From the IMG/VR virus record IMGVR_UViG_3300049844_000277, positions 36,520 through 100,519 of that record: a stretch of DNA of 64,000 bases. One strand, written 5' to 3'. This document shows, piece by piece, positions 8,529-62,261 of the stretch. Below the pieces are notes generated by a model. That model was given only the letters and a program-made list of their open reading frames with translations. It had not been told where the DNA came from and made no database searches. Every line of letters starts with the position of its first letter. Within the stretch, counting starts at the first letter, position 1. The position numbers and the translations under genes are program-made. This DNA comes from a virus.

Positions 8529-8633
8529 GAAAGTTTGCTCCTTTTACTTTTACTTTGGCCGGAGTGTAGGCCAATGGTTGAGATTTAACAATCAATGTAG
8601 TCGGTCGGCGCCGCTACGTACAACTTAGGAGAA

Positions 8634-40398: not shown

Positions 40399-40426
40399 AA
40401 GTTAAACCGTGGTAGGAAATGATTAA

Positions 40427-40627: not shown

Positions 40628-41185
40628 TAAGCCGAAAGCAGCATTACAATTACCGTGCGCTAACCCCCGAACAACGCCTGTAGTGTGGTCATGGTCAATT
40701 TTCGGAACCTCAAAAAGAGGGCGATCGCATAACCAACAACGTCCCGACTGAGCGATAAGTAACGTATGCCATCGGGAAAGAGTTAGTCCGTAGGTGTGAC
40801 GTGCACGGTGTCCTGGATTAGCGAGACGCCACGCTTTTGTACGCGCTTTCGCCGTTGCCGAATTAGCACGGTAGTACGCAGCTTGATACTCTCTAATCTT
40901 ATCGCGGTTACTAGCGTAATATTTCGAAGCACGAGCCTTTACTTTCTGCGGATTAGCTTTACGGTAGTCAGCTCTTTGTAATCGGATCTCTTCCGCGTGC
41001 TCCTCCCTATAATTCTTACTGTACTTCTTAATCCGAGGCGCATTCTTCTTACTATATTTTTTCTGCTGTGCGCGAATTTCCTCACGATGCGCGTAATAGT
41101 ACTGAGCCGCCAATATTCTCGAGCAGGGCGCGCATCGCCCATCTTTGCGTTTCTCCGTACTCCCACACTTGTTACATTTTCCCAT
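40547..41185 (-). CDS. HNH endonuclease, adjacent to terminase, with a basic repetitive N-terminus.
   Basis: CWLCDRPLFEVPKIDHDHTTGVVRGLAHGNCNAAFG (HNH core). N-terminal CNKCGS...C zinc ribbon. KKYSKKN...KKYSKNYREEH repeats. Confidence 0.75.
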   Translation of the reverse strand: MGKCNKCGSTEKRKDGRCAPCSRILAAQYYYAHREEIRAQQKKYSKKNAPRIKKYSKNYREEHAEEIRLQRADYRKANPQKVKARASKYYASNRDKIREYQAAYYRANSATAKARTKAWRLANPGHRARHTYGLTLSRWHTLLIAQSGRCWLCDRPLFEVPKIDHDHTTGVVRGLAHGNCNAAFGLLHEDPYVFATIAKNVFALKGSCDSTG

Positions 41186-41212
41186 TTACACAATATACAC
41201 TAGAGCAAACAT

Positions 41213-42496: not shown

Positions 42497-43223
42497 CGAG
42501 CTCTCGACGCAGATGCTTGGTTCTATCTTCGACGTAACGCCAAGCAACAGCTAACCGGCCAAGCTGCGCCCCCAAGGCGGAAATATCGAACGTACGTGCT
42601 TTTCGTTCGAGCTCCTCCTTGGGGAGCGCTTGCCAAGCCGCTTCGGTTTCTTTTTGAAGCACTAAGGAATCCGCGCTCAATTTACTCGTCAACTCTTCCA
42701 ACGCGAATCCCAAGCCGACGGGTGGAAGTACTAGTCCCTCGTCGAAGAGAGATACACCGACGTACGCAGCGACGCTCTCGTCATATTCAGGTCGAGTAGA
42801 TTCACCATCAGTCAGCGCAAACAAGAGCTCCGCCTCAAAAGCGGCCCACGCCATCTGCGCTGAATCACACTTCGGCACGTCGTTCGGACTTACCATCTCC
42901 TGCGTCAAGGCGTGCGTCGTTGCGCCGAATACGCGGTAATCCCAGTAAAAGCTGGGAGTCAGCGCGAGCGCAACACCCGCCATTAATTTATCTCGATTCG
43001 AGGTGTGGATGGGTAGTTCGTGCCATAGCGTTTCAGGCTCGTAAGCCGTGAAATGTGGACCCAGTAAATAACGGGCTGATACAAGTAAGGCTGTTGCAGA
43101 CGTATCTGCGTTTTGTAGCAACTCTTTAGCGGTCTGCTCGTGTACGGACGTAGGGATGCGGAAATATGCCGCATAGGCTTCCTTTACTGCGAGACGTTGT
43201 AGCTCAGAAAGCGTCATCGACAA
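42480..43223 (-). CDS. Hypothetical protein (247 aa).
   Basis: ORF. Confidence 0.5.
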   Translation of the reverse strand: MSMTLSELQRLAVKEAYAAYFRIPTSVHEQTAKELLQNADTSATALLVSARYLLGPHFTAYEPETLWHELPIHTSNRDKLMAGVALALTPSFYWDYRVFGATTHALTQEMVSPNDVPKCDSAQMAWAAFEAELLFALTDGESTRPEYDESVAAYVGVSLFDEGLVLPPVGLGFALEELTSKLSADSLVLQKETEAAWQALPKEELERKARTFDISALGAQLGRLAVAWRYVEDRTKHLRRELATFEH

Positions 43224-44239
43224 TGCGCCCTCAACTGAAGCTTCAAATCCAGAGGAAGCGTATCGACTACAACAGCAAGCTTGGATTGGTCAACTTCACC
43301 CCCGGGTGCTACCTCATCTCGAAGTTCCTTGCCGCCTAAATCTTCCCAGAAAGAAGCGGGAAGCGCTGCTATCTTCTTCATCGGAACAAACGTACCACCC
43401 AAATCAACAGAATGGGCCGCCTGCTTTTCCGTATTGAACACCGTCCTCACGGCATCCGGAAGATTTCGGTCGTAGTGCTTATCTAAACCTGACTGCTCGT
43501 CGAGCTCCGCGAGAACCGACGCAAACTTCATCAAGCCTTTTCGATCAAAAATTTCTACAGGCTTCTGCTTCAAGCCGTCCGCCAAAGTTTGATACGCTAG
43601 CTTAAATACCTTCGCATCTTCGGGAAGCTTGTTTGCACGGGCCTCAACCCAATCCCGCGCGGTCTTCGTATTCGAGACTACGAGTCCCGCGAGTTGTAGG
43701 ACCTCAGGGCGGAGCTCGACGTTAAGCTCATCTGCTCGCTTCACCAACTCCGCGCAGGCCGAGACACGGTGCTCCATATCCAACTTGGGCAAGGACTCTA
43801 CCAGTTCTTCTTGTGCCCGCTTACACTGCTCAGGATTCGTCACACGAAACAGCCTAAGAGTTGGTAAAAGATATTGATTATCCTCCGAAGCTACCTTCGC
43901 CGTCTCCTCTTGGAAGATAGATTCAGGAACGGCGTATACCTCTAACGCCTGCGCGATATTCGCGCGTACCTCCTCAGGAAGCTCCGAAGCTACCTTTGAG
44001 TACGCGTAGCTCAGCATGGCGTGCTCAGGTGTATGAAGAGGAAATTTTCGCTCCGACGGCCAAGCAAAGGCCGAATCGGGAAGCGCATCAGCTTCACTCG
44101 GCTCTATCGTCGCCTGCTTAACAAACTCCTCCATAGCAGGCATACGGTTGATCTGCCGGTACAAGGTACCAAATGCGGTATCGGAAAATTGGTCAATCGC
44201 TGACATTGTTGACCTCTGCAAGAGAAGACGTCGCGTCAA
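43214..44239 (-). CDS. Hypothetical protein (341 aa).
   Basis: ORF overlapping the previous one by 10 nt, suggesting coupling. Confidence 0.5.
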   Translation of the reverse strand: MTRRLLLQRSTMSAIDQFSDTAFGTLYRQINRMPAMEEFVKQATIEPSEADALPDSAFAWPSERKFPLHTPEHAMLSYAYSKVASELPEEVRANIAQALEVYAVPESIFQEETAKVASEDNQYLLPTLRLFRVTNPEQCKRAQEELVESLPKLDMEHRVSACAELVKRADELNVELRPEVLQLAGLVVSNTKTARDWVEARANKLPEDAKVFKLAYQTLADGLKQKPVEIFDRKGLMKFASVLAELDEQSGLDKHYDRNLPDAVRTVFNTEKQAAHSVDLGGTFVPMKKIAALPASFWEDLGGKELRDEVAPGGEVDQSKLAVVVDTLPLDLKLQLRAHCR

Positions 44240-44251
44240 GAGTATAGGCGG

Positions 44252-45946
44252 ATGTTGGGAAGTGAGCCAGCATACTTCTTAAAGGATATCCAAAAAATGT
44301 CAAACCAGCCTGAACAAGAAAATGCACTCCAGAAATCGATGGTTTTCTGGGTGTCCCGCCGAGGAGCCTCTAACTACTGGGCCTCGGTCGTGAATGGAAT
44401 GAATAAGAGGTTCTCTAACGACGAAGGAACAATGTCGGTGCAGCTCACAGAGAACTGGAAATATATCCTCACCTGCCATCTTCCAGCGTTCGAATCGTGG
44501 TCGCCGAGAATGCGACTACTTGCTCTCGTTCACGAATGCGCTCACGTAGTTCTTCAGCACATTCCCCGGCTGTTCAAGATGTTGGCCAATTGTACAGACC
44601 CGTTCGTACGCACAGCCATCACATCGACGTTCAACTTCGCAGCAGACTTCGCGGCGAATGACGCAATCGTTCGACTTGAAGACGGATTCACAGAAGCGCA
44701 CAAAGCCTTCATGCACGTCAGTCCAGACGGAAAGCCGATTCCTCTCTCCAAAGAAGAAGAGGAGAAACTTCCCGGTGAATGGCCATTTCTTTTGCCAGAA
44801 GAATTTGGACTACCTCGTGGAAAGACAATGGAAGAGTACTTCGTGCTCATCCTCAAGGACCTCCCGAAGTTCAAACAACACGTCGAGGAGATGATGAAAA
44901 ACCTCGAACGTATTCTGAGTGAAATGGGGGAAGACTCCGAAGGAGAAGGAGAGGGAGAATCAGAGGATGGAAGTGGCGGCCAGGGAAAATCTCCCTCCCG
45001 TCGAAACATTCCACCTAAAGGGATTCCCGGCATTCCCGACGAAATCGTCAAGCACGCTCTCAACTCACCAGAGACCTTCGAGATGTTGCAGAAGGCCTTT
45101 GATAAGATTTCCAGTAAAGCACACAAGCAGTGGAACGAAAAAGCAAAGGAGATGACACCTGAGGAAGCAATCTCTGCGGGCAATAAGCTCAAGAAGCACG
45201 CGCAGACGATGGTCAGGGCCGCGAATGACCGCGTAAAGAGAGACCGCGGATTCATGCCCGGCGGAGTCCAGAAGATAATTGACGCGCTGATGGAGCCGGA
45301 CCAGATTCCCTGGGATTCAATTCTTCGAGACATCATTCACGGAGCAATAAGCGCTCGCGTTCAAGAGGAGATGGTCTCTCCGAATCTGTCTCTCATCAAC
45401 GAAGACTACTTGGAGCCGTGGCCTGGGCAAACATTGGAATTTGGCTTCAACATCACCTGGATGACCGATACCTCTGGTTCGATGGGTGATAGTGAATACG
45501 CGCGGGCGTGTAACTGCATGAACTCGCTGCTTGCGCAGAACAAGTTCGTATCCGTCACATACTGCGAGTGTGACGCCATCATGCAAAAGGAGGTGAAAGT
45601 CACAAACATCGAACCGCTCACAGAGGAATACTTGAGCGAGCTCCGTACACGCCGAGGATATGGAGGAACTGTCTATACGCCGTTCTTCAAGCGCGTAATG
45701 GGTGCGGATGAACCTCGGGATTGGATTGATGGCGCACCACGACTAGAGGATGCGCATCCCAAACCGGACTTAATGGTAATCTGCACGGATGGTGGCGTTC
45801 GTCTCATGGGAGAATGCTTCCCGAAGTATCGGCCAGAATGTCCCATCATCTGGTTGTTGATGCCAGGCTGCCATGCTACGACCGGAATGGATGATGTCGC
45901 GCCGGACCGGTTGATTCAGATGTATAAAATGCGGGAGGAGGAGTAG
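44252..45946 (+). CDS. Putative metallopeptidase-like (HExxH) + von Willebrand factor A domain protein. Likely partner of the MoxR ATPase.
   Basis: LALVHECAHVVLQH (HExxH). Acidic linker EDSEGEGEGESEDGSGG. MIDAS-like FNITWMTDTSGSMGD (DxSxS). This architecture commonly pairs with MoxR AAA+ proteins. Confidence 0.65.
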   Translation: MLGSEPAYFLKDIQKMSNQPEQENALQKSMVFWVSRRGASNYWASVVNGMNKRFSNDEGTMSVQLTENWKYILTCHLPAFESWSPRMRLLALVHECAHVVLQHIPRLFKMLANCTDPFVRTAITSTFNFAADFAANDAIVRLEDGFTEAHKAFMHVSPDGKPIPLSKEEEEKLPGEWPFLLPEEFGLPRGKTMEEYFVLILKDLPKFKQHVEEMMKNLERILSEMGEDSEGEGEGESEDGSGGQGKSPSRRNIPPKGIPGIPDEIVKHALNSPETFEMLQKAFDKISSKAHKQWNEKAKEMTPEEAISAGNKLKKHAQTMVRAANDRVKRDRGFMPGGVQKIIDALMEPDQIPWDSILRDIIHGAISARVQEEMVSPNLSLINEDYLEPWPGQTLEFGFNITWMTDTSGSMGDSEYARACNCMNSLLAQNKFVSVTYCECDAIMQKEVKVTNIEPLTEEYLSELRTRRGYGGTVYTPFFKRVMGADEPRDWIDGAPRLEDAHPKPDLMVICTDGGVRLMGECFPKYRPECPIIWLLMPGCHATTGMDDVAPDRLIQMYKMREEE

Positions 45947-45958
45947 AATAGGCGCACT

Positions 45959-46264
45959 ATGCCAACCGTCACTCCTCCAATAACTGATGACTCGGATTGC
46001 AGGGGCTACAAAGTACGATTCAACGAATCTTGGGAAGGGTCTATCTACAAAGCGAACCGTCATTGCTGGATGGCTACGCTAACCAAGAAACAGAAGAATC
46101 GCGCGCTTGTCATTCGTCCCGGAAAAAATTTTCCAAATCCTACGGAAGCGAAGAAATGGTGTGAAGAACAATTTGAACTAGAAGAAAAATCAGCGGTCCC
46201 ATACGAACAAAAACTTCGAGACGTACTCGTCGCAATCCGTAAACAAATAGAAGAAACCCTATAA
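45959..46264 (+). CDS. Hypothetical protein (101 aa).
   Basis: ORF. Confidence 0.5.
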   Translation: MPTVTPPITDDSDCRGYKVRFNESWEGSIYKANRHCWMATLTKKQKNRALVIRPGKNFPNPTEAKKWCEEQFELEEKSAVPYEQKLRDVLVAIRKQIEETL

Positions 46265-46265
46265 C

Positions 46266-46652
46266 ATGTCGCTATACAACTCGCTTTTCGGCCAAGAAAC
46301 TCTGGCCCCAGTTCTCCTAAACGCGCTGAACCTGTCTCGAGAAACCGTCGGAAGATATCGAGACTGTTATCTGGCGAAGGGGGAAGACTTAGGAATGCGC
46401 ATCATCGTATTCACGCGAAACGGTGGCGGTAATCGTGAAGACTACGAAGAAGTAACTCGCTATCTTCAAGCACATCCCCTGTACGTTCGCGACTGGGATG
46501 AAGAGTACGATTGTACTTACGCGTCGTACGAGTTTCGCGTACCAGAGTCGCTAGCCAAGGCCTTGGAAAAATTTGATGAGGAAGAACTCATGCCGCAGTA
46601 CGCACCGATGGAAAAATTCAAAGCGGTAATTGAGAAGCTCAACAGTCAGTAA
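46266..46652 (+). CDS. Hypothetical protein (128 aa).
   Basis: ORF. Confidence 0.5.
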   Translation: MSLYNSLFGQETLAPVLLNALNLSRETVGRYRDCYLAKGEDLGMRIIVFTRNGGGNREDYEEVTRYLQAHPLYVRDWDEEYDCTYASYEFRVPESLAKALEKFDEEELMPQYAPMEKFKAVIEKLNSQ

Positions 46653-46683
46653 CAGTCCTCCTCCCCCTCCCCTTCCCCCTCTA

Positions 46684-46721
46684 GGGCTTCTACGTACGCG
46701 TAGGAGCCCTTTCTTTTTCTT
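46684..46721 (+). terminator. Rho-independent terminator: 11-bp stem (gggcttctacg/cgtaggagccc, one G-U), 4-nt loop, then tttctttttctt.
   Basis: Seen directly, 32 nt after the stop of 46266..46652. It is preceded by a 26-nt polypyrimidine run (cctcctccccctccccttccccctc). Confidence 0.7.
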
Positions 46722-46728
46722 AGGTACC

Positions 46729-47331
46729 ATGGACCTCTACTGTCTTCGTGTTCGTAGGAACATCGCTGGACGTAAATTTCCCTTCGATAGAGTGTATCTC
46801 GCGAAATACGGGGATCACGTTATATTCAAAAGATTATTCAGGTATGCCTTCATCCTTCCCGTTGAAGGCGTACTAAAGGAAACGCTGTACTGTCTCCCCA
46901 TTGAAGACAGCATGACGCACGCATTCGACAGAGTAGAAACGCCTGAGAAAATTCCAGATGTAGAGTGGAAGACGCTCATCGACTCGACGGACTGGGTACT
47001 CGCGGTACCGATTCTATCGAAGTACGTGACCGCTAACATGCCGAGATATATTATTGCCAAGTCCACGGTGCCCCGAAGAGACAAGAAAAACTCTAACGCG
47101 TGCGCAAACCCGTTTCCAAACATGACGTACTTGCAGACACCCGAGCAAAACATTCGGCCAATATGTGTCGCATGTCCGAACTTTATCCAGCATCAGAACG
47201 GTCACTGCGAACTTGGAGATAAGCTCTGCTACGACTCTCTTTCCCTGGGAATCCGAAATCACTTTGAAGAAGGCATGATGGTTCCTCCTGCCCCGGAAAA
47301 AGAACAAGTGACTGAGGAGGGGAACGACTAA
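46729..47331 (+). CDS. Hypothetical protein (200 aa), first gene of the RT operon. The track ORF starts at 46630, but the upstream part crosses the terminator and is non-coding.
   Basis: First ATG after the terminator, in frame. The stop overlaps the RT start (TAATG). Cys-rich C-terminus: CVACPNFIQHQNGHCELGDKLC. Confidence 0.5.
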   Translation: MDLYCLRVRRNIAGRKFPFDRVYLAKYGDHVIFKRLFRYAFILPVEGVLKETLYCLPIEDSMTHAFDRVETPEKIPDVEWKTLIDSTDWVLAVPILSKYVTANMPRYIIAKSTVPRRDKKNSNACANPFPNMTYLQTPEQNIRPICVACPNFIQHQNGHCELGDKLCYDSLSLGIRNHFEEGMMVPPAPEKEQVTEEGND

Positions 47332-48467
47332 TGCCTGTCTACAAACAAAATTTCCTTGAGCGAATTGAAGTACGCGAGCCACTCATCAAAGGCGTACCCC
47401 TTATCGTCGATGACTGGAGTCTGGCATTCCAGCTAGGTTTTACGGGTAAGACCGCGTGGTACATCATCCATGAACGCGCCAGTATGTACCGGGAGTTCAT
47501 GCTGAAAAAGAAGTCTGGGGGTCTCCGTAGAACGTTTGATCCAACTAACCTCCTGCGCATTTTCCAGAAACAACTACGCGCACGCATTCTGTTCCCGCTC
47601 GTATCTCGCCTAGGTCCGCACGTAGCCGCGTATCAGGTCGGTAAGAGCACGCTTGATGCGGCAAACTGGCACCTGCGCGAGTGTAAAATCTGCGACGACA
47701 CGACCCGTCCCGGCACGAGTCCTGTGAAACATGAGTGTCCTCGACGGGGTGTGAAGTTCAAAATGGATTTGAAGGATTTCTTTCTATCGACTCGTCGGTC
47801 CTGGATACGACAGTATTTCCACGAAGTCGTCGGATACAATCACTACGTCTCGTCGATTCTGGGGCACCTACTGACGACGAGTTATAAAGATGAGCGGAGA
47901 AAAGACAGGAACGGCGTTCCGCCAGGCGCATTAACAGCTGGCGATATTTGTAATCTCATCTGTGATTGGAAGATAGATCAACCGCTTATGGCGGCACTAC
48001 CCACAGGCTGGAAGTACACACGGTACGCCGATGACTTGTATTTCTCGTACGACGCACCCCTTCCATCAAAAGAAGTAAACAAGATAATCCGACTAGCCTC
48101 GGACACCATCACCGGCTCCGGTTACCGGGTAAATTGGAAAAAGCTCCAAGTGCAACACTGGAGCCGGCCCCAGCGAGTACTAGGTATCAATATCAACAGA
48201 AAACTAAACATCCCTGCGACTGAGTACCGTCGAATGCACATGATTCTGTATAAAGCAAAGAAGCATGGATTCCAGGCGCAACTTACGTGGGCAAAGAAAG
48301 CCGATGTTCCGGAACTTCACGCCTGGATAACCGGCAAACTGAATTACTACGCGCGATTCGCACCAGATAAAACCAATAAACTACAACGGCTTTATCAAGA
48401 AGCGAAGGACGCGAATCCAAGCGAAGAGGCCGCGGTGTTCAACTTTGGAACCGGTGCAAACCCATGA
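47331..48467 (+). CDS. Reverse transcriptase (retron/DGR/group-II-like clade) with a Cys/His-rich insertion.
   Basis: - Motif 1: KKKSGGLRRTFDP.
- Motif 2a: AAYQVGKSTLDAA.
- Motif A: VKFKMDLKDFFLS.
- Motif B: VPPGALTAGDICNLI.
- Motif C: YTRYADDLYFSY.
- Motif 6: VLGINI.
- Thumb: GKLNYYARF.
- Insertion: CKICDDTTRPGTSPVKHECP. Confidence 0.85.
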   Translation: MPVYKQNFLERIEVREPLIKGVPLIVDDWSLAFQLGFTGKTAWYIIHERASMYREFMLKKKSGGLRRTFDPTNLLRIFQKQLRARILFPLVSRLGPHVAAYQVGKSTLDAANWHLRECKICDDTTRPGTSPVKHECPRRGVKFKMDLKDFFLSTRRSWIRQYFHEVVGYNHYVSSILGHLLTTSYKDERRKDRNGVPPGALTAGDICNLICDWKIDQPLMAALPTGWKYTRYADDLYFSYDAPLPSKEVNKIIRLASDTITGSGYRVNWKKLQVQHWSRPQRVLGININRKLNIPATEYRRMHMILYKAKKHGFQAQLTWAKKADVPELHAWITGKLNYYARFAPDKTNKLQRLYQEAKDANPSEEAAVFNFGTGANP

Positions 48468-49840
48468 ACATGTACACGGTTTGCCACGCGTACGATGCAC
48501 GTAACGCAAGGTCAGATGCACTTGCGCTTTTGTTCAATACTCCCGACACTAAAAAAATAGCAGGAATCCCTGAGCTCTCCGAAATATATCCCAACGGATA
48601 TTTCGTCACTAGTATCTCCGACATAAAATCAGGAGACCCCTACAGACACTCATACTACCAAAGACAAAGATACTCCCACAATCCTGCTCCTTACACGATG
48701 GTATCCATTTTCGCTACGTACCCCCGTCCAGATGAGGCAAAACTAAACAGCGAAGATATTTGCTTCTTCGTAAATGGAAAAACATATCAGGTTAATCTAC
48801 GTACCCGCTACAACCACTGCCTGTCGTTGTTCAAAGCGGTAGGTTGTGCGCAATGCCCTGATAACGGGCTCCCCTGCGTATCCCAGGAAGCCGAAGAGCT
48901 AATCGAGCTTGATAAGAAACTCACCGACGCCGAAAGGCCTGTGTATTTCAACGAGACAGCGTTCTCGAACAATACCGAGTTCTTGAACGATATCGACGAC
49001 ATAGAGTTCTTAAAGTACCTACAAAGAAAGCACCCGTCCCTCGGTGACTTCAAACTTGTCAAACCCGGATCAACAAGTCCACGTTCGTTCCATAGTACTT
49101 TCCGCCCGTACTGGGACCACGACTTTTCGCTAGTTCCACGTAATGAAAAAGAAAAGTCAGACGCGGCATCTCGAGCAGCACGGACACGTAAGTTCAAGAA
49201 GGAAGAATGTCCTCAGTGCGTCATCAAAGATAGCTGCTCGAATGCATCCCGGTGTGATGGTAGATATCCGCCACAGGAGACGATTATCAAGCAGGCGAAT
49301 GCGGAGCTTACTGCGGCGATAGCCGGGTCGATACTTCCCGAGTGGGCGATATGGGAAGTTGCTCGAGGCGCGGGACAAACAGCAAAACATTCCAGGTGGC
49401 ACATCATGCTCACCGGAATACTATTAGACCGATATGGAAATGGGTCTCTCCGCGCTACAGTTCACCGCGCAAAAACAGACATCGATGAGTACAAAAGACT
49501 CAATACGTACGAAGAAATCGCTGAAGTATTTAACTTAGCGAAAACGGAAAAAGATGTGCCGCCCGAGCGTGGACCACTGAGGAGCTTTGAGCTCCGCGCA
49601 GTTTGGTGGTTGGCGCTTCTTGCTCGCTCAACCGCTCGAAGGGCTACAGGTTGGGGAGGTTCCCGGTACGTCGTAAGTATCGGTGTAGATGAGAAGACCG
49701 GTATCTCGCTCGAATGGACAAACGGGCGAGATATATCCCACTGGCACAGCAACAATCTACGTAAGATTGAAGATGTATCGAGGTGCCTCACGCCGAATAG
49801 TTTGTACGGCGTAGCTAAGGAACAATTCGTTCAGCGGTAG
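48464..49840 (+). CDS. Hypothetical protein (458 aa) translationally coupled downstream of the RT.
   Basis: Start overlaps the RT stop (ATGA). Cys clusters (CAQCPDNGLPC, CPQCVIKDSCSNASRC). No family recognised. Confidence 0.55.
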   Translation: MNMYTVCHAYDARNARSDALALLFNTPDTKKIAGIPELSEIYPNGYFVTSISDIKSGDPYRHSYYQRQRYSHNPAPYTMVSIFATYPRPDEAKLNSEDICFFVNGKTYQVNLRTRYNHCLSLFKAVGCAQCPDNGLPCVSQEAEELIELDKKLTDAERPVYFNETAFSNNTEFLNDIDDIEFLKYLQRKHPSLGDFKLVKPGSTSPRSFHSTFRPYWDHDFSLVPRNEKEKSDAASRAARTRKFKKEECPQCVIKDSCSNASRCDGRYPPQETIIKQANAELTAAIAGSILPEWAIWEVARGAGQTAKHSRWHIMLTGILLDRYGNGSLRATVHRAKTDIDEYKRLNTYEEIAEVFNLAKTEKDVPPERGPLRSFELRAVWWLALLARSTARRATGWGGSRYVVSIGVDEKTGISLEWTNGRDISHWHSNNLRKIEDVSRCLTPNSLYGVAKEQFVQR

Positions 49841-50918
49841 GACACACTTCCTGGTACGCAAGGAAGGCTTCTGTATCTGCGAGGAGGGCGGCCGACTGAG
49901 CTTCGTCGGCTGCTCTCTTCGCTGTCGCCGCTTCGGCGGCAGCCGTATCTGCGTCTTTCTTTTTTTGGCTCGTAATGGACACTTCACCGAGCTTATTAGT
50001 ACAGGTGAGCGCCATATCGCTTCTAAACGCTTCGAGGACTGACTGTCCGTTCGTAACTTCATCCACGACCGCTGCATCCATGGCAGTCTTAGCGGCGTCC
50101 CAGATGGCTTTCGCGCTGGTGTAGGCGCTCTTTGCGGCGTCGTAGGTAGCATTATCTGCGGTACCTGCTCGATAGGCGTCGGCCACACTAACGAACGTAG
50201 TAACTGCGTTGGTGTAGGTAACCGACGCTGAAATAAAGTTGTTGACGCTTGCCCGGTACGTGCTAATAGCCGTGTTCCCGGAGTTGAAGCGCCCCAGCAT
50301 CGCGCTACACTTCTGGCTCTCACTTAACGCCGTGACGTTGTCTTCGTTCGCCGCTGAAGCTGCGGCTGCGGTTACGGTAGCGTCCGTCGTTGCTTCGGCT
50401 GCCGTCACTTTGCTAGCCAGGTACTCGGCGTGCGCCGTAGTGTACTCGGACTCCCGTTCCGCAACGATGCCCGCGGTGAGGGGCATTGAAATCGTCGAGT
50501 AGTCTGGCGGCGAGGTAAGAGGCGCCAAAAACTGCTCGTTGTAGGTATGCCAATCGGCAATCAGATTGTCGACACGTTGTTGAATGAGAAGCTTGGCGCT
50601 CGAGGCCGTAGCAATGTCATCATAAACAACCGTGAAGTTCGTGCTGAGATAAAGGGTCTGATTTAAGCCGACCGCCGTTTCTCGGCCTAAGGACAGCGTC
50701 GTCAAATCAGCTACGTTAGCGACGCGAAGAAAAGTATCTGACTTTGGATCAACTGAGTTAACTATCTGATGGACAAAAATATTTGACGTGTACGGAGAAG
50801 GCCCGTATAGGGGGAGATCTCCTGCCTCGACCGAGTCGATGCTCGAATCAATCTTGAAGCGTTGAATACTAGCTTCGTCGAGAAATACAGTGCAACGTTG
50901 TCCAAGAGTGGTAGGCAT
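49815..50918 (-). CDS. Ala/Thr/Ser-rich hypothetical protein (367 aa), possibly structural or fibre-like.
   Basis: ORF. Composition (TVTAAAASAANEDNVTALSE...) suggests an extended or fibrous protein. Weak evidence. Confidence 0.45.
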   Translation of the reverse strand: MPTTLGQRCTVFLDEASIQRFKIDSSIDSVEAGDLPLYGPSPYTSNIFVHQIVNSVDPKSDTFLRVANVADLTTLSLGRETAVGLNQTLYLSTNFTVVYDDIATASSAKLLIQQRVDNLIADWHTYNEQFLAPLTSPPDYSTISMPLTAGIVAERESEYTTAHAEYLASKVTAAEATTDATVTAAAASAANEDNVTALSESQKCSAMLGRFNSGNTAISTYRASVNNFISASVTYTNAVTTFVSVADAYRAGTADNATYDAAKSAYTSAKAIWDAAKTAMDAAVVDEVTNGQSVLEAFRSDMALTCTNKLGEVSITSQKKKDADTAAAEAATAKRAADEAQSAALLADTEAFLAYQEVCPTAERIVP

Positions 50919-50945
50919 TTTTTGTTTTTCTTGTTTCCCTTGTTC

Positions 50946-51395
50946 TTACGGCACCGTAACGGCGGTAGTGCCAATCACGAACGAGGTCGCGATTATATCA
51001 TACTCTTGCGCCAAGCTCGTCAAGCGTGACTCGATGGTCGCCGCAAAGTCGATAGCCTGATTCGCCGCAGTATACAACTGGGTAACAGTGTTTTGTCGGT
51101 AAAAGGGAATGGCGGGCGTTGCTACGTCGGGATACGTCTGCACGTCAAGCACGGTGGCTATATGGTCATAGAGGCCGTCGCTGTACCGGTACACAAACAC
51201 AGCGTCATCGATATTAACCGTACTGGTGACCGTAGCCGCAACGCTGTATTGCGCCGGTGGACCAGTAATCGTCGACTGAACCAGATTGTACGTGATGCTA
51301 GTAGCGGCCATGGTGCTCCCAGTATAGGCCGCACATCTATCCATGTCTAAACAACTTCGAATCGGCCTTTGGGATGTGCAGAAGACCATCCCCAT
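50946..51395 (-). CDS. Hypothetical protein (149 aa), Thr/Val-rich, possibly structural.
   Basis: ORF co-oriented with the previous gene. Confidence 0.45.
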   Translation of the reverse strand: MGMVFCTSQRPIRSCLDMDRCAAYTGSTMAATSITYNLVQSTITGPPAQYSVAATVTSTVNIDDAVFVYRYSDGLYDHIATVLDVQTYPDVATPAIPFYRQNTVTQLYTAANQAIDFAATIESRLTSLAQEYDIIATSFVIGTTAVTVP

Positions 51396-51427
51396 TCTCT
51401 ATTTCTACCGTGTAAACCCCCGAACTG

Positions 51428-51937
51428 TTGATGACGACAAACTCAGATTATTGGCTGAGATGGGCAAGCGCCCAAGGAGCTACGATGCCGGCACACTCCC
51501 GAGGTCAAAGTCAAAGTCAAATCCAAAACCCAAATCTGGACGTGTTTCTAGAAGGTGACGTATATACGACGAATTGTCGATGCTCTGATTGTGGGAACAA
51601 TCACAGGAAAACAGAAAGAAAAGAATATTACTGGGCCACGGTCTCGAACTGCCACCGTGAATTAGCTCGAGCAGCAGAGGTTTACACGGCGGTCTGGGAG
51701 CCGAACACGGCGGGGTCTACCGTCGCAAAGCAGCTCATCGTTCCGCTGACCATCGGCCTCGCGGAGCTTGAAGTTCATCCTGAAAAATTTGAGAGCATCG
51801 CTCGTCGAAGCGTGTGTGCTCCGTACGGGGGATATCAATCCTTCGTGCATTTCATCCAAGGCTATCTGCAAGCGTGCATCGAGTACCCTGACGCCACCGT
51901 GCGGGTATCTACGCATAATTGGGGGCTACGTGATTGA
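51428..51937 (+). CDS. Hypothetical protein (169 aa) with a CxxC pair.
   Basis: ORF. CRCSDCGNNH. Confidence 0.45.
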   Translation: MMTTNSDYWLRWASAQGATMPAHSRGQSQSQIQNPNLDVFLEGDVYTTNCRCSDCGNNHRKTERKEYYWATVSNCHRELARAAEVYTAVWEPNTAGSTVAKQLIVPLTIGLAELEVHPEKFESIARRSVCAPYGGYQSFVHFIQGYLQACIEYPDATVRVSTHNWGLRD

Positions 51938-52250
51938 TCTAATCGAGCAGCTAACTCGGCAGAAGGAGTTCTCTCTTAGGACCTTTGGGCCCGGCGATTC
52001 ACGCGAGAGATTCGCTGGATTGCGGGAGCATATTGAGAAGGAACTGAGAGAGCTGGAGTCCGCCCCGTACGACTTGGAAGAGTGGATAGACATCATCTTG
52101 TTGGCGCTGGACGGCGCATGGAGGACCGGCGCAAGTCCAGCAGAGATAATCGCAATGCTCCAATACAAGCAACGAAAGAACGAAGAAAGAAAGTGGCCCC
52201 GCTGGCAAGACGTTTCGTTTGAGCGAGCGATGGAACACATCAAGGACTAA
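51930..52250 (+). CDS. Hypothetical protein. The track ORF 51768..52250 overlaps the previous gene by 170 nt; a GTG start at 51930 is proposed.
   Basis: A GTG overlaps the previous stop (GTGATTGA). The downstream part has ordinary protein-like composition. Confidence 0.35.
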   Translation: MIDLIEQLTRQKEFSLRTFGPGDSRERFAGLREHIEKELRELESAPYDLEEWIDIILLALDGAWRTGASPAEIIAMLQYKQRKNEERKWPRWQDVSFERAMEHIKD

Positions 52251-52275: not shown

Positions 52276-52614
52276 ATGTCTGACTGCTCTTCTTCTTCCC
52301 TTCCCTCCCCTTCTTCCCTTCCCTCTTCTTCTTCCCCTTCTTTTGACGCCGACATTCTGGCCGATGCCGAATCACGCGAGTACAACGAGTTCCTTCGCCG
52401 CGCTTACCTCCGCCGACGAATAGATAAACCTGGCTCTCGGTTAATCGGATACGGCGGCATGCCGAAGAATGACCAGCAAGCGAGATTCGGGCCCGCGATT
52501 TGGGAGTTTACGCCGGAGATCGCCAATATGGCGGCGCGGTATGCTTCTTATGTGCAGGGTCGGTACCTCCGATATCTCCGCGTCCGTCTTCCCCCACGAC
52601 ATCGGGAGTCATAG
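52276..52614 (+). CDS. Hypothetical protein with a Ser/Pro/Leu-rich N-terminus encoded by a 58-nt polypyrimidine tract.
   Basis: ATG at 52276 chosen over the track start at 52219 to avoid overlap. Composition is unusual, so the coding call is doubtful. Confidence 0.3.
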   Translation: MSDCSSSSLPSPSSLPSSSSPSFDADILADAESREYNEFLRRAYLRRRIDKPGSRLIGYGGMPKNDQQARFGPAIWEFTPEIANMAARYASYVQGRYLRYLRVRLPPRHRES

Positions 52615-52619
52615 TCACA

Positions 52620-53651
52620 ATGGAACGTGCGTACGGCGTAGCAATTGCCTCCATCTATTTGGAGAAGCTGAAGTATCACGTCTTTCCTATTCGGCAGATA
52701 CTCGGAATAACGACTGGAGAACCCCGCTGTGACTGTACGGATGAAACGTGTCCGAACGTCGGAAAACATCCGCGAGTAGCGTGGTCTAAGAATACTGCGA
52801 CCGCGTCTGCTTGGGAACGTTGGCCAAATGACGGCTTTGGAATCGCAACAGGTGCGCGTTCGGGTATTTGGGTCTTGGATGTCGACCCGAAGAATAACGG
52901 TCCGGAGACACTACGGGTGCTCGAGCAGGCTCCAGGGCACGCTCCATTACCCAGGACAATAACCGTAAAGACGGGCTCGGGAGGGGAACATTACTACTTC
53001 CGATATCCTGGTCCGAATTACCGTAACACCGCCGGTGCGCTCGGGTTGGGACTAGACACGCGTGGTGACGGTGGATTCGTCGTTGGGCCTGGGTCACTGC
53101 ACAAGAGCGGGCGACGGTACACGTGGAAGCATGGGCCCGCCGATGCGCCGCTCGCCGATCCGCCTGAGTGGTTGCTCAAGTTGGTGAAGCAAACAGCCAA
53201 ATACCGGCGAGACGTGAACGTTGAAAAACAAGGGCTGCACACAGCACCTGTCCCACGCGCAGAGGCGGAATATCTTCTCGAAATAATGTTGGACCCGGAC
53301 TGCAGGCTAACGCAGTGGATGCGCACGTCTCCCGACGACGTCAGCCGAGAAACGTGGCGAGGATTTGCGACAAACCTCGCTTGCGCTGTAGTCGATCATC
53401 CTGAGTTGATCGAAAAAGCCTGCGAAGCGTTCCACGAAATCTCGTCCGGATATTCGCGCTATAAGGTTTCTGAAACGGAGCGAGTATTTAGAGATTCCGT
53501 AACAGTTGCACGGGTTTACGGCCCAATGTCGTTCGAGCACATGGTGAGGTCAGGAATGCCCTCAGAGCACGCTATTCCTCCCCACGCAAAAAACTTGTTG
53601 CACTCCGCGCAGTTGGAGATGCGGAGAAAAAGGCCTCGCAAGTCGGATTGA
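52620..53651 (+). CDS. Bifunctional primase-polymerase (Prim-Pol) N-terminal domain protein. The track ORF starts at 52500; an ATG at 52620 with a GGAG RBS is preferred.
   Basis: CPNVGKHP. VLDVDPKNNG (DxD). SGGEHYYFRYPG. GPGSLHKSGRRYTW. These are the classic Prim-Pol motifs. Confidence 0.75.
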   Translation: MERAYGVAIASIYLEKLKYHVFPIRQILGITTGEPRCDCTDETCPNVGKHPRVAWSKNTATASAWERWPNDGFGIATGARSGIWVLDVDPKNNGPETLRVLEQAPGHAPLPRTITVKTGSGGEHYYFRYPGPNYRNTAGALGLGLDTRGDGGFVVGPGSLHKSGRRYTWKHGPADAPLADPPEWLLKLVKQTAKYRRDVNVEKQGLHTAPVPRAEAEYLLEIMLDPDCRLTQWMRTSPDDVSRETWRGFATNLACAVVDHPELIEKACEAFHEISSGYSRYKVSETERVFRDSVTVARVYGPMSFEHMVRSGMPSEHAIPPHAKNLLHSAQLEMRRKRPRKSD

Positions 53652-53826: not shown

Positions 53827-55728
53827 ATGCTGCTGCCTAGTCCTGCTGAGGTCAAAGAACTAATCGTCTCTGCAGCCTTTCAAAGCGATGCGTTCATCGT
53901 GGCAAAAGGCGAAAAGACGCAAACAATGAAGGATATAGAAGCTGAAAAAGCGGCCCACGCAATGGCGGCCCGTCAGTCTAGTGGTCTACCACAAAGTACA
54001 AACGCACTTCAAACTTCGCCAAACCCGGACCCTGCGCCACCTCCCGTAGTGGAGAAGTTGGCCGGGGTTCTTAAGTTCCTAATCCAGAATGACCCCGTAC
54101 TGCTAGCAAAAACGAAGATTGAATTCAAAAAGCATTTCACAGGAGTCCTGACAAAGGGAAAGCTCATCTTAGAGCCTCTTTGTGACTCCCTCTTCGATTC
54201 AGCATCGGCCGAAGACATCACCTACAAAGAATTACGTAAGTTGGGAATGCATCGGGGCGGGCAGATACCCGGCGTGGAGACGTTGGGCCGGTGGATTCGA
54301 AGTGAAGCGTATAGCCAGTGCGTACCCAACGGACCACTGACCGATGACTACGTCTCCTTAATAGTCTTACTCACGCTCGACCCTGAGCTTCTAAAGGGCA
54401 AGCTGGAGTGGGACGATATGAACAAGGCTATTACGATTAACAGAGAACCTATTGATTTAGCAAAGACAGTAAGTCGAATCCGTACGCAGATAGGGGATAC
54501 TTACTCTCAGGAAGTCGGACGCTTACGTAAAATGCGTCGAATCGTCCCCTCACATCAATCTGTAGAGCAAGCCCTGGAAGCCCTGGCGAAGGAAAATCCG
54601 TTCCACGCAACGAAAGAATGGATGGACGCGCTCCCTGCGTGGGACGGCGTCGACCGCATGCTTCCGCTCCTAAAGGCTATCAGAGGCTGGGTGGATACGT
54701 CTGCCATTGACATGCCGCAACATATAAAAGAAGAGCACGAAAGGATAAACAACCTAGCGCTGAAACAGCTAACCAAAACACTCATCGGCACGGTAGCTAG
54801 AACATACGAGCCCGGGTGTCAGATGGACACGATGTTAGTGTTAAAATCCAAGCAGGGGACCAAGAAATCCACATTATTCCGCGTACTGGCACCAGCAGGT
54901 AGGTTCTCGGCATCGCACGGTGAATTCGGGACTAAAGACTCCCGAATGGTATACACGAAGAATACCTGGGTAGAGATTGCGGAACTGAGTGGGATGCAAC
55001 GCAAAGAAATACAAACAATCAAAGCTGAAATCAGTGACCGCAGTGATGACTTCCGACCACCGTACGCTAAAGCTATCATCAATAACCCTAGGTGGTGCGT
55101 GCTCGTAGGGTCTACGAACGACGATAAGTTCCTGAAAGACCAGTCGGGGTCGCGTCGATTCTGGATTATCGTCATAGGAGACGACACGAAGGCGGATATG
55201 GTCTTCGTGGAGAACAATAAGCCACAGCTATGGGCACAGGCGGTGGCTCTCTATAAGGCTGCCCCTATGTGCCAGGACTGCCTCGCGCGGGCCGATGGGG
55301 AGACCCGCTGCCCGACGCACCGCTGGTGGCTTACCGACGAGGAGGACAGCTTCAGAGAGAAGTACAACGAGAACTTCACGGAAGTGGAACCCTACGTAGA
55401 GGCGCTCAGGGACTGGATGAGCAGCGCAATCTCGGACCGTCGTTCGTCGAAACAGGGGCTACACACGGCGGTAAAAAATACCGACCACATGACGGTCGCG
55501 CAATTTCTTCAGGAGGTCATTATGCTACCGCCAGAGAAGGTTTTTGATCGAATCCAGCAGGATAGAATGGCCCGAGCACTCAAAATTTGCGGATACACTA
55601 AAAAACACACAGAACACGGAAATATTTGGATAAGTCCAGGAATGCGCAATAGACCAGATTTGAAATTAGTCGCTAAAGAAAAAACAGAGGCGGTATCGGA
55701 GAATTTGACAAAAACGTCGGAACAATGA
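53827..55728 (+). CDS. D5/P4-family SF3 helicase, the primase-associated C-terminal domain protein.
   Basis: Walker A LVLKSKQGTKKSTLF. Walker B region and SGSRRFWIIVIGDD, characteristic of D5-like NTPases. AGAGGAG RBS. Confidence 0.75.
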   Translation: MLLPSPAEVKELIVSAAFQSDAFIVAKGEKTQTMKDIEAEKAAHAMAARQSSGLPQSTNALQTSPNPDPAPPPVVEKLAGVLKFLIQNDPVLLAKTKIEFKKHFTGVLTKGKLILEPLCDSLFDSASAEDITYKELRKLGMHRGGQIPGVETLGRWIRSEAYSQCVPNGPLTDDYVSLIVLLTLDPELLKGKLEWDDMNKAITINREPIDLAKTVSRIRTQIGDTYSQEVGRLRKMRRIVPSHQSVEQALEALAKENPFHATKEWMDALPAWDGVDRMLPLLKAIRGWVDTSAIDMPQHIKEEHERINNLALKQLTKTLIGTVARTYEPGCQMDTMLVLKSKQGTKKSTLFRVLAPAGRFSASHGEFGTKDSRMVYTKNTWVEIAELSGMQRKEIQTIKAEISDRSDDFRPPYAKAIINNPRWCVLVGSTNDDKFLKDQSGSRRFWIIVIGDDTKADMVFVENNKPQLWAQAVALYKAAPMCQDCLARADGETRCPTHRWWLTDEEDSFREKYNENFTEVEPYVEALRDWMSSAISDRRSSKQGLHTAVKNTDHMTVAQFLQEVIMLPPEKVFDRIQQDRMARALKICGYTKKHTEHGNIWISPGMRNRPDLKLVAKEKTEAVSENLTKTSEQ

Positions 55729-55960
55729 ACTTATTAAAAAACAATAGGTGTAAGCAAGTTTCGGGCCAACAAACTTTTTCAAAAATTCCTGAAAGGGGCG
55801 TTCAGCCGCAAATGTCCGTAATTACTAAAACTCGAAGAAAAACCTGAACAGGCTGAATGCCCTGACATGGTGCTTCTTATATAAGCATGGAGTAACAGGG
55901 GTATTACTGACCCACCCTGGGTCATTTTTGACGGACACTGGGTATAAAGTTCAGAAACAT

Positions 55961-56040
55961 ATTCAGGGTATTCAGGTATTCAGTTATCCAATAAAATCAA
56001 GTACTTAGAACGAAAAATGGCTGAATACCCCCTGAATATC
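55961..56040. repeat. Iteron-like cluster: TATTCAG core three times direct (attcagggtattcaggtattcag), then twice inverted (ctgaataccccctgaatatc).
   Basis: Seen directly in the AT-rich half of the 1.16-kb non-coding region. Confidence 0.6.
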
Positions 56041-56084
56041 CCCCCCTATGGCACCAGAATTGCTTGTGCGGTCAAAATCGAACT

Positions 56085-56108
56085 TTCTGGGCTATTTTCT
56101 GGGCTATT
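56085..56108. repeat. Tandem 2 x 12 bp repeat (ttctgggctatt).
   Basis: Seen directly. Confidence 0.6.
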
Positions 56109-56436
56109 ATTTTGTTCAGTATTCCTTTTAACCAAATGCCCGAACTGGCGAACATTGATCACGTGCCATCCCGCGCGCCCAACATTGATCCCGTGCTGTC
56201 CGAGCCGACCCTCAGCGGGGTCAAGCTCCCGTGCTGTCCGCGCCAGCCTCCGGCCGGCCCCGCTTCCGCAAGGGAAACCTTCCCGACGTCCCGACGAAGA
56301 CTATACCCTAGCCTAGCCTTATCCTCCACCCCCGTCCCCACTCTCGCTGTAGCCGTAGATTTCCTGGCAAGTCTCGCCAAAGGCCTCCAGCGGGCCGTAG
56401 GACCGACGAACCGGCGTAACCCGGTCCGACCCCTTG

Positions 56437-56482
56437 CCCGACCCCCGAACGTCGCTCCTGCGCCCGCCTAGGCCCCTTCCCG
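56437..56482. repeat. 46-bp direct repeat, copy 1 (cccgacccccgaacgtcgctcctgcgcccgcctaggccccttcccg).
   Basis: Identical to copy 2 at 56562..56607, period 125 bp. Embedded in a GC-rich CCGAC-rich segment. Confidence 0.7.
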
Positions 56483-56561
56483 CCGGTCCGCCGAATCCGC
56501 CTCAAACCGCCCTGAGTGGCCTCCAGGCGCTCAAACGCCCCAGACCCGACCCAAGACCCTA

Positions 56562-56607
56562 CCCGACCCCCGAACGTCGCTCCTGCGCCCGCCTAGGCCC
56601 CTTCCCG
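56562..56607. repeat. 46-bp direct repeat, copy 2.
   Basis: Identical to copy 1. Confidence 0.7.
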
Positions 56608-56888
56608 GCCTAGACTCGAGGGGAACTCTCGCCGGGAGAAGACCCTTGAAGCCCCTACCCGCCCTGACGCTTCGCGACGTCCTCAAGAACGAAATTGAAA
56701 ACGATCGACGGAACGTCGAACAGATTTCCGTCTCTCGCCAGGATTCAGTTAACCGTTCAATCGCCATATGTGCGCGCCGGTACATCGAAGCGCTGGACTT
56801 TGGCGATGAAACGTTGTTGTTTGATGCCGAAGATAATTTGCGGCTTGCGCTTGATAACGTTCGTTCTTGATTATTCGCTTACTTCAAA

Positions 56889-57446
56889 ATGTTATTTCTC
56901 GGAGTCGATCAATCACTACGCAGCTCCGGAGTGGCTGTCATTTCCGAGGAACAAGAATCTGTCTATCTTGGGCGTATAGCCCCTGCTAAGCTTTCAGATG
57001 CACCAAGGTTGGCTGCAATAAGAGACGCATTACAGACACTCATTACTACAACACCAGACATCCGCTTTGCCGCGCTAGAAGGGTACGCGTATGACGTTGG
57101 CGCTGGTAGAGTGTTTGAGCTGGGTGAAGTTGGCGCTGTTGTTAAGTTGGCGCTTTATGACGCTAAAATCCCGTTTATCGTCGTTCCGCCGGCCTCTCTA
57201 AAGCAATTCGTAGCTGACCACGGCAACGCCAATAAGACGCAAATGCGGATATCTGTATTACGTCGTTGGGGTTATGACATTACCCAGGACGACGAATGTG
57301 ATGCCTTTGGTTTGGCGCAAGTCGCTAGAGCTGTACACCTTAACAAGGGCACGACTCGCTCCGAACTCGAAGTACTGAAGAAGCTACGTACAACAGACAA
57401 GAAGGTTTCTTTAGTCAGCTTCAAGACCCGATTCCCTTCCATCTAA
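56889..57446 (+). CDS. ruvC: RuvC-like Holliday-junction resolvase (RNase H fold).
   Basis: MLFLGVDQSLRSSG (Asp1). ALEGYAY (Glu). DDECDAFGLAQVA (Asp/His region). Size about 185 aa. Confidence 0.7.
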   Translation: MLFLGVDQSLRSSGVAVISEEQESVYLGRIAPAKLSDAPRLAAIRDALQTLITTTPDIRFAALEGYAYDVGAGRVFELGEVGAVVKLALYDAKIPFIVVPPASLKQFVADHGNANKTQMRISVLRRWGYDITQDDECDAFGLAQVARAVHLNKGTTRSELEVLKKLRTTDKKVSLVSFKTRFPSI

Positions 57447-62122: not shown

Positions 62123-62183
62123 TAGTCTCGACTTCACTAAACCGTCTGCTTCACCAGCGCGGTAGACCTTGGGGTTTAGTGAA

Positions 62184-62256
62184 CTCCCCGAGTAGGACTC
62201 GAACCTACGACCTAGCGATTAACAGTCGCTCGCTCCACCAGCTGAGCTATCGGGGA
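62184..62256 (-). tRNA. tRNA-Asn (anticodon GUU), 73 nt, no encoded CCA.
   Basis: Manual fold:
- Acceptor: TCCCCGA/TCGGGGA.
- D arm: GCTC-AGCTGGTG-GAGC.
- Anticodon arm: AGCGA-CTGTTAA-TCGCT.
- Variable loop: AGGTC.
- T arm: GTAGG-TTCGAGT-CCTAC.
- Discriminator: G. Confidence 0.8.
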
Positions 62257-62261
62257 AGATG

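Follow-up and report, generated by a model that had tools for sequence, protein, structure and literature searches.

In the replicon of the Staphylococcus aureus pathogenicity islands (SaPIs), rep is preceded by a primase gene and followed immediately by the replication origin. The SaPI origin contains six to twelve iterons of 5-6 nt and an AT-rich centre with at least two opposed iterons on each side; the iterons are read by the C-terminal winged-helix domain of Rep, and the helicase loads itself (PMC9371898). The alpha protein of phage P4, a primase/SF3-type helicase, binds origin repeats through a C-terminal winged-helix domain, and in replicons of the pRN1 ORF904 type, the origin is found just downstream of the replication gene, past a terminator hairpin (PMC4234260). 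Here, we analyze the non-coding gap that follows the gene of a VapE-like SF3 helicase in a 64,000-nucleotide stretch of viral DNA (positions 36,520 to 100,519 of the IMG/VR record IMGVR_UViG_3300049844_000277; hereafter, the window, numbered from its first letter). We propose, with a probability of about 0.75, that positions 55795-56120 of the window are an iteron origin of the SaPI type, which would be served by the adjacent Prim-Pol primase and by a self-loading helicase. Judging from the sequence, such an origin would be of a known kind and newly placed in an uncultured lineage of large phages.

Putative replication origin downstream of the helicase gene

The gap is flanked, in order, by genes of a Prim-Pol primase and a VapE-like helicase on one side and by a 74-amino-acid gene and RuvC on the other. 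The product of the proposed initiator-helicase gene (“rep”, 53827-55728, plus strand; PF05272) is 633 amino acids long. Its ATPase core (amino acids 182-458) matches the protein in PDB entry 7PDS (7pds_A) at an E-value of 6.2e-26 in a phmmer search; this entry is the complex of SaPI1 Rep1 with DNA (PMC9371898). No sequence similarity between the window helicase and SaPI1 Rep1 was detected outside the ATPase core. The C-terminal part of the window protein contains a Cys/His motif (amino acids 482-498) and a predicted winged-helix-like domain (approximately amino acids 555-605). The C-terminal 158 residues were modelled with an alignment of 28 homologues, and the mean predicted local distance difference test score (pLDDT) of the model was 73; residues 80-130, with pLDDT values of 84-94, were folded as a helix, a second helix and a beta hairpin. 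Foldseek returned no significant match to this model, and winged-helix domains dominated its hit list. The modelled domain is likely a winged helix. The best-matching helicase from an isolated phage is ca. 31% identical to that of the window, and a scan of IMG/VR with the window helicase retrieved relatives of 28-32% identity only.

The Prim-Pol primase gene (“pri”, 52500-53651, plus strand) matches Pfam family PF09250 at an E-value of 3.8e-36 and a PHROG annotated as DNA primase. An independent gene call on a Logan contig (L007, locus positions 6063-7094, corresponding to 52620-53651 of the window) sets its start at 52620. The primase gene is located directly upstream of the helicase gene, and this order is kept in all related phages described below.

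A preliminary description of the gap, made from the sequence alone, had listed iterons, a palindrome, a tandem repeat, pentamers, a 46-bp repeat and a switch in GC content, and each of these was found at its place. The DNA that follows the helicase stop (55728) is AT-rich, with a GC content of 0.34-0.47. It carries five TATTCAG iterons, three of them direct (55960-55966, 55969-55975 and 55977-55983) and two inverted (56021-56027 and 56032-56038). Read as CTGAATA, they account for 5 of the 13 such sites in the 64-kb window and fall within 79 bp, where a Poisson estimate from the background rate predicts ca. 0.01. With the relaxed motif STGAAY, ten sites are found in the gap, none further than 400 bp from the helicase stop, versus 1.85 expected from the rest of the window.

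The iterons are arranged in three groups. Group I (55795-55862) consists of three degenerate copies (GTTCAG at 55800, CTGAAC at 55844 and CTGAAT at 55853) and includes the inverted pair GGGCGTTCAGCC / GGCTGAATGCCC. Group II (55949-55983, minus strand) contains one degenerate and three perfect CTGAATA copies, the latter at spacings of 9 and 8 bp, while group III (56021-56038, plus strand) is made up of two CTGAATA copies, 11 bp apart and opposite to those of group II. As can be seen, the leftward group II and the rightward group III face each other across an AT-rich spacer of 37 bp (55984-56020), which we propose as the unwinding region. The spacer contains the integration host factor (IHF) consensus AATCAAGTACTTA at 55995-56007; the AATCAAnnnnTTA box agrees with the IHF consensus WATCAANNNNTTR at every position, and one of the three such matches of the 64-kb window lies in the spacer. 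The 60-bp segments starting at 55702 and 55944 tie with one starting at 25229 for the lowest GC content in the window (0.28), and the minimum at 55944-56003 overlaps iteron group II and the spacer.

Two further elements lie on either side of groups II and III. Upstream, the palindrome TGACCCA-CCC-TGGGTCA (55908-55924) is followed by TTTTT, and a scan reported the whole segment (55908-55929, plus strand) as a terminator-like site; it looks like the terminator of the pri-rep operon. In the alignment with related phages, this hairpin occupies the place of their conserved hairpin and GCCACACATATGGTCATTTT box. Downstream, the tandem 2 x 12 bp repeat TTTCTGGGCTAT (56084-56107) and the iteron GTTCAG (56114-56119) form a segment, 56084-56119, that is specific to the window phage and has no counterpart in the alignment of its relatives. 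A search for DnaA boxes (TTATCCACA) allowing at most one mismatch yielded none in the gaps of the window phage and its nine relatives.

Iterons of related phages and a proposed mechanism of initiation

Starting from helicase homologues of 45-62% identity, DNA was obtained for nine related loci (L011, L013, L014, L015, L016, L017, L018, L020 and L022), whose helicases are ca. 48-62% identical to that of the window. Contigs of 140-196 kb represent the related phages, the longest reaching ca. 170-196 kb. In all nine, a non-coding gap of 445-556 bp is located directly 3′ of the helicase stop. The apparent gap of L016, 666 bp, is really ca. 445 bp, given a DUF4031-like gene at 8366-8586 (ATGGAGTACTTCAGCGACAAAC...) that was missed by the gene caller and is homologous to the first post-gap gene of L011, L014 and L022.

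The order of parts within the gap is shared. An iteron cluster lies within the first ca. 125 bp after the helicase stop and is followed by a hairpin with the conserved box GCCACACATATGGTCATTTT (TGACCCACCCTGGGTCATTTTT in the window), by an AT-rich stretch in which three iterons follow one another in tandem every 8-9 bp, and by the box AATCAAnnnnTTAG; next come two opposite iterons, the box ACGGGCTGTTTCGCCTTCCGGC and a GC-rich leader that extends up to the next gene. At the position of group II, the relatives have copies of their own iteron variant, some of them degenerate (for example, in L013 and L017), and at the place of group III, they have iteron copies in matching orientation. A 19-nt box, GCCACACATATGGTCATTT, is identical in L011 (8065-8090), L013 (8078-8103), L014, L015, L018 and L022, where it is present in one copy per locus and is conserved far above its surroundings; the helicases of its carriers are ca. 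55-90% identical to each other. We also considered the GCCACACATATGGTCA box and the leader motifs as a general promoter of these phages and rejected the idea, since each occurs once per locus in the relatives.

The iteron itself differs between phages (the variants being CTGAATA, GTGAACA, CTGAACC, CTGACTACC and GTGAAGG), and most copies inside one phage share its variant. The window phage has CTGAATA (relaxed, CTGAAYA), L011 and L014 have GTGAACA, L015, L016 and L020 have CTGAACC, L017 and L018 have CTGAC(T/G)ACC, and L022 has GTGAAGG. Variation of this kind is expected of sites that are read by a co-evolving protein. The residue x of a Q-x-RM motif in the predicted recognition helix of the helicase appears to track the iteron type: it is basic in phages with CTGAACC (K in L015 and L016, R in L020), A or S in those with GTGAACA (L011 and L014, respectively), M in those with CTGAC-type or mixed iterons (L013, L017 and L018), N in L022 with its GTGAAGG and D in the window, where it is D581 within QQDRM. 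The ATPase domain of L020 is closer to that of the GTGAACA group (identity 0.80-0.81) than to those of L015 (0.70) and L016 (0.60), yet this phage has the CTGAACC iteron and a basic residue. The sample is small, and we regard the correspondence as suggestive.

In 5 of the 10 phages, a perfect IHF consensus is present with identical position and strand, which corresponds to 0.93 matches per kb in the gaps versus 0.013 per kb outside them, a ca. 70-fold difference. Several iteron origins make functional use of IHF sites (PMC4980987).

The survey was extended to 62 loci, 53 of which encode distant VapE-like helicases (25-42% identity), and the 350 bp following the helicase gene were compared with control windows. 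In 35% of the surveyed loci, the segment behind the helicase gene contained some 7-mer in more copies than did any of that locus's control windows; the rows of six close relatives (L011-L017) are imprecise in this count, their stop codon having been set too far downstream. The highest copy numbers were 10 (L086) and 9 (L045, L056 and L092). With about a third of the loci carrying repeats at this place, the rule that iterons follow the helicase gene reaches well beyond the lineage of the window phage.

Based on this anatomy, the following mechanism can be proposed. The VapE-like SF3 helicase would recognize the 7-bp iterons CTGAAYA via its C-terminal winged-helix domain, and the two opposed iteron sets lie on either side of the 37-bp AT-rich spacer with its IHF site. 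Binding of the helicase, together with bending of DNA by IHF, would melt the spacer, where the helicase would load itself. Prim-Pol may then lay primers, which the phage DNA polymerase (34144-37527) would extend. The hairpin and T-run at 55908-55929 probably stop transcription of pri-rep before the origin core is reached.

GC-rich half of the gap and other features of the window

The remainder of the gap (56150-56645) differs sharply in composition. The GC-richest 500 bp of the window, 56165-56664, have a GC content of 0.692, ca. 5 standard deviations above the mean, in a genome with a GC content of 0.51; GC skew in the GC-rich stretch is -0.2 to -0.42. All eight copies of the CCGAC pentamer are on the plus strand, between 56205 and 56567. 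The segment 56151-56260 (plus strand) carries three copies of a leader box, C(A/C)CGTGC..TCCG.GCC, at 56160, 56190 and 56228; AACATTGATC occurs in it twice, and the last copy of the box continues into CCTCCGGCC. The tripled box is homologous to a single box of the relatives, ACG(G/T)GCTGTTTCGCCTTCCGGC. Another element, CGTGCTGTCCG, is present in two copies and one diverged copy. The tripled box is followed by ca. 157 bp of unique, C-skewed, GC-rich filler (56262-56418) with no detectable homology, coding signal or repeat, and then by two copies of a 64-nt unit (56419-56482 and 56544-56607, plus strand; 89% identity) whose final 46 nt are identical. The resulting perfect 46-bp repeat (56437-56482 and 56562-56607, at 125-bp spacing) was reproduced by none of the shuffled sequences. 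Each 64-nt unit opens with a C-run tract, which would form a G-quadruplex on the minus strand, and contains CCGAACGTCG and GCGCCCGCC. The pair CCGAACGTCG..GCGCCCGCC and the sequence TCGCCGGGAG, which includes the ribosome-binding site, match gene-proximal leader elements of the relatives; being inside the 46-bp repeat, the former is present twice in the window. The span 56420-56664 accounts for three of the window's four G-quadruplex-type tracts, the three being plus-strand C-runs. We also looked for a hidden periodic unit of ca. 195 nt in the GC-rich half and rejected it: the known pair of 64-nt units alone stands out.

In the relatives, the leader, counted from the CCGGC box to the next gene, is 66-145 nt long, versus 496 nt in the window. 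It is GC-rich in eight of the nine (0.65-0.75, versus 0.54-0.60 for the locus), and in six of the nine, it has more C than G on the plus strand, while the skew of the loci overall is positive. By this comparison, the GC-rich half represents the leader between the putative origin core and the next gene, non-coding and enlarged four-fold, and its extra length is made up by the tripled box, the filler of ca. 157 bp and the duplicated 64-nt unit. The retention of a GC-rich leader in a genome with a GC content of 51% argues for some constraint. Our guess is that this leader serves as a stable duplex boundary beside the unwinding region and/or as an untranslated leader of the downstream genes. One could imagine instead that the leader is an active, strand-specific part of the origin: a quadruplex or R-loop formed by it might determine where priming occurs or in which direction initiation proceeds, or the leader might be a second set of protein sites that controls firing. 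The concentration of three of the four G-quadruplex-type tracts, the perfect 46-bp duplication and the tripling of a conserved box speak for such a role, which is not known from SaPI-type or P4-type origins and which we consider unlikely.

The six open reading frames of the GC-rich half gave no Pfam match, a tblastx search of the region returned, apart from the 74-amino-acid gene discussed next, only noise driven by composition, and blastn of the GC-rich half against all fetched loci produced no match. The preliminary description had treated all of 55729-56888 as non-coding and had dismissed the six-frame reading frames within it. Both statements hold up to 56645, that is, for 917 bp, but fail for 56646-56870, where periodicity, tblastx and gene calls point to a conserved gene. 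Scores of 3-base periodicity do not exceed 1 across 55600-56650, versus 4.6-11 in the flanking genes, and periodicity is back from 56650; codon-position GC is flat in the non-coding stretch. The 74-amino-acid gene (56646-56870, plus strand) has a TTG start with GGGAG 7 nt upstream and a periodicity score of 6.2. Homologues of its product adjoin RuvC in the relatives (tblastx E-values of 5.5e-18 for L020 and 2.5e-16 for L015), and the reading frame is called as a gene on independent JGI contigs. It is a conserved partner of the RuvC gene, located upstream of it and outside the non-coding element; since 56646-56870 codes for a conserved protein, the true gap is 55729-56645 rather than 1.16 kb. 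The downstream flank is formed by the gene of the RuvC-like Holliday-junction resolvase (56889-57446, plus strand; PF02075, E-value 2.3e-8; PHROG 159, E-value 2.6e-31).

The window phage is present at 100% identity in one Logan and two JGI assemblies. A comparison of the region with GenBank phages, distant mode included, gave no match. The sole match to a GenBank phage within 45-64 kb of the window is a tRNA-Asn (GTT) gene at 62183-62257 (minus strand), which is 89% identical to a tRNA gene of Gordonia phage Catfish. Along with the DNA polymerase, the window encodes an SNF2-type helicase, a large terminase and proteins with RNA-polymerase-beta-like segments. The latter are products of 2836 amino acids (12377-20887, minus strand) and 599 amino acids (9086-10885, minus strand), segments of which match families of phage RNA polymerase (RNAP) beta subunits. 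This suggests that the phage has its own multisubunit RNAP, in which case scans for host-type promoters may not apply.

A reverse transcriptase gene (PF00078; 47331-48467, plus strand) is located in the replication gene block between neighbours at 46630-47331 and 48464-49840; its best match in a defence library is the retron-type RT_XIII model (E-value 1.6e-46). Template and variable repeats of the type found in diversity-generating retroelements were sought as direct repeats of at least 40 nt in 40000-52000, and none was found; no retron RNA of Rfam was found either. A pure CT tract of ca. 60 nt (52286-52345) holds one of the window's four G-quadruplex/i-motif-type patterns and sits in the gap of ca. 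370 bp upstream of Prim-Pol as called on the Logan contig (start 52620). The intergenic region at 25229-25430, which ties for the lowest-GC 60 bp, separates a leftward from a rightward gene block and is probably a divergent promoter region.

Alternative explanations and comparison with known systems

Several points weigh against the origin reading. What we observed directly is the anatomy of the sequence, its homology, conservation and co-variation, and the lack of coding; from these we infer that the helicase binds the iterons, that the DNA melts and that an origin is active here, as well as whatever function the GC-rich half may have. The co-variation of the recognition helix with the iteron concerns 10 genomes and a single alignment column. 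The cumulative GC skew, which the preliminary description had put forward as a check, has its minimum within the window at 57071, but with the C-rich element masked, the minimum is found at 49139 instead. The one at 57071 is thus made by this element, and the skew is compatible with an origin here and does not locate it. Short repeats that flank an IHF site are also found in packaging sites and in promoters or operators, so the architecture by itself does not single out an origin. A passive leader explains neither the perfect 46-bp repeat of the GC-rich half nor its clustering of G-quadruplex-type tracts. For the AT-rich half, the reading as a replication origin is well supported by helicase homology, the SaPI-like layout and the conservation of this layout in nine relatives; the GC-rich half with its 46-bp repeat, which the preliminary description had included in the same signal, is an enlarged leader containing no Rep-type iterons.

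If the repeats were instead operators of a dedicated regulator, the region would serve as promoter and control region for the block of genes beginning at 56646. A terminator-like hairpin does precede the core, a new gene block follows it, and the GC-rich leader ends in a ribosome-binding site. A scan for sigma-70 promoters found none; since the phage encodes RNAP-beta-like proteins, its promoters would not resemble sigma-70 sites. However, the repeats are always at the 3′ end of the helicase gene, whereas the gene that comes next varies (a DUF4031 gene, genes of 62-66 amino acids or the 74-amino-acid gene), and no regulator gene is conserved beside the region. The arrangement of three direct repeats at 8-9 bp with two inverted ones is atypical for dimer operators, the iteron type tracks a residue in the predicted recognition helix of the helicase, and the same pattern of repeats is seen after distant VapE helicases. 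Operators are therefore, in our opinion, an unlikely explanation. We give far less credit to the idea that packaging starts or the genome physically ends here (pac, cos or a terminal-repeat junction), in which case the AT/GC boundary would be the end of the DNA, as the preliminary description had offered as its second choice. The region does resemble pac of phage P1, where clusters of repeats flank an IHF site, the Logan assembly of the window phage breaks at 56466 / 56578, and the contig of one relative (L021) ends right after the helicase gene. Yet the Logan break sits exactly within the two copies of the 46-bp repeat, and we read it as an assembler effect, assuming that the k-mers used by Logan are shorter than the repeat. 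An independent JGI contig (L010) spans both copies at 100% identity, and contigs of six relatives, 20-196 kb in length, cross the region at varying internal positions. The gene of the large terminase (38794-40398) is ca. 15 kb away. With contigs reading through, a break inside a repeat and a distant terminase gene, the proposal of a terminus has no support and seems very unlikely.

The GC-rich DNA at ca. 56262-56607 could also be functionless, foreign or decayed, i.e., a mobile element, captured host DNA or the remnants of small genes. Its GC content of 0.69, the maximum of the window, in a genome of 0.51, the lack of homology between 56262-56418 and the relatives, and the presence of two small genes in L015 and others where the window is non-coding would fit this view. 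Against it, a search for terminal inverted repeats came up empty and inspection of the sequence by eye showed no obvious target duplication, tblastx revealed no trace of the small genes of the relatives, and the 24-nt core of the 46-bp repeat had no match in viral contigs or in 185,579 bacterial and archaeal genomes. Moreover, the leader is GC-rich in eight of nine relatives, and both its ends are homologous to theirs, from which it follows that at least part of the GC-rich DNA is ancestral and is kept GC-rich although the genome around it is lower in GC. This explanation seems improbable, if a little less so than operators. The least credible proposal, to our minds, is a structured non-coding RNA, for instance one that serves as template for the retron-like reverse transcriptase (47331-48467). 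A retron-type enzyme is indeed encoded 8 kb upstream, and the non-coding region is long and contains inverted repeats; retron RNAs, however, lie beside their own reverse transcriptase, and in L011 and L014, which have the same region, the genes called over the preceding 6 kb include no reverse transcriptase. Rfam searches over the gap region gave no matches either at the gathering threshold or at E-values up to 5, and the folding energy of the GC-rich half was like that of shuffled sequence on both strands (z-scores of -0.20 and -0.04). RNAalifold on the leaders of the relatives produced a weak consensus of -4.7 kcal/mol with no convincing covariation.

We therefore favour a replication origin in the AT-rich half. 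Origins of large uncultured phages are seldom located, and the candidate described here is placed to within ca. 100 bp by sequence alone. A putative initiator, its candidate sites and a likely host cofactor, IHF, are named together, and the cofactor suggests a proteobacterial host. The 10 matched variants of initiator and iteron provide a natural series for the evolution of winged-helix specificity, and the occurrence of iterons right after the VapE-like helicase gene in about a third of distant loci may offer a shortcut for annotation.

Like the gap of the window, the iteron origins of pSC101, R6K and P1 combine iterons with an AT-rich unwinding region and an IHF site (PMC4980987). They differ in depending on a dedicated Rep and on host DnaA, DnaB and DnaC, while no DnaA box was found in the gap and the proposed initiator is the helicase itself. 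In oriV of plasmid RK2, too, a GC-rich stretch adjoins the AT-rich region. The pRN1 ORF904-type replicons (Sulfolobus plasmids and Bordetella phage BIP-1) resemble the window in the place of the origin, after the replication gene and a terminator hairpin. Their origin is, however, a 100-nt stem-loop that lacks iterons, and three domains are fused in their protein, whereas the window has iterons and two genes.

Phage P4 is similar in using an SF3-type helicase with a C-terminal winged helix (predicted in the case of the window) for the repeats of its origin, and the octamer iteron of P4, TGTTCACC, resembles GTGAACA/GGTGAACACC of L011 and L014. P4 has a Toprim-type primase joined to the helicase in one protein, unlike the separate Prim-Pol gene of the window, and P4 alpha gave no match in the PDB sequence search or among the fold-search hits listed. 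The second site of P4, crr, consists of two direct repeats of ca. 120 bp. The 125-bp-spaced repeats of the window (64-nt units, 56419-56607) contain no STGAAY iteron, and the GC-rich half contains no Rep-type iterons, so the repeats are no equivalent of crr.

The closest parallel is the pri-rep-ori arrangement of SaPIs. The order of primase, helicase-initiator and (putative, in the window) origin right after the rep stop is the same, the helicases are homologous, short iterons of 6-7 bp surround a central AT-rich region with at least two opposed iterons on each side, and a winged-helix-like domain is predicted at the C-terminus. An SF3 homologue, an upstream primase, six to twelve iterons after rep and opposed iterons around an AT-rich centre were thus all found in the window. 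The differences lie in the replicon, a 15-kb satellite island in one case and a large lytic-type phage with its own DNA polymerase and RNAP-like proteins in the other, in the helicase, which in the window has an extra N-terminal region of ca. 180 amino acids and a Cys/His motif, and in the gap itself, where the window adds an upstream iteron group, a conserved hairpin/box, an IHF consensus and a GC-rich leader. If our reading is true, the SaPI type of origin with a self-loading helicase would reach beyond small satellites and include phages for whose relatives contigs of ca. 170-196 kb are known.

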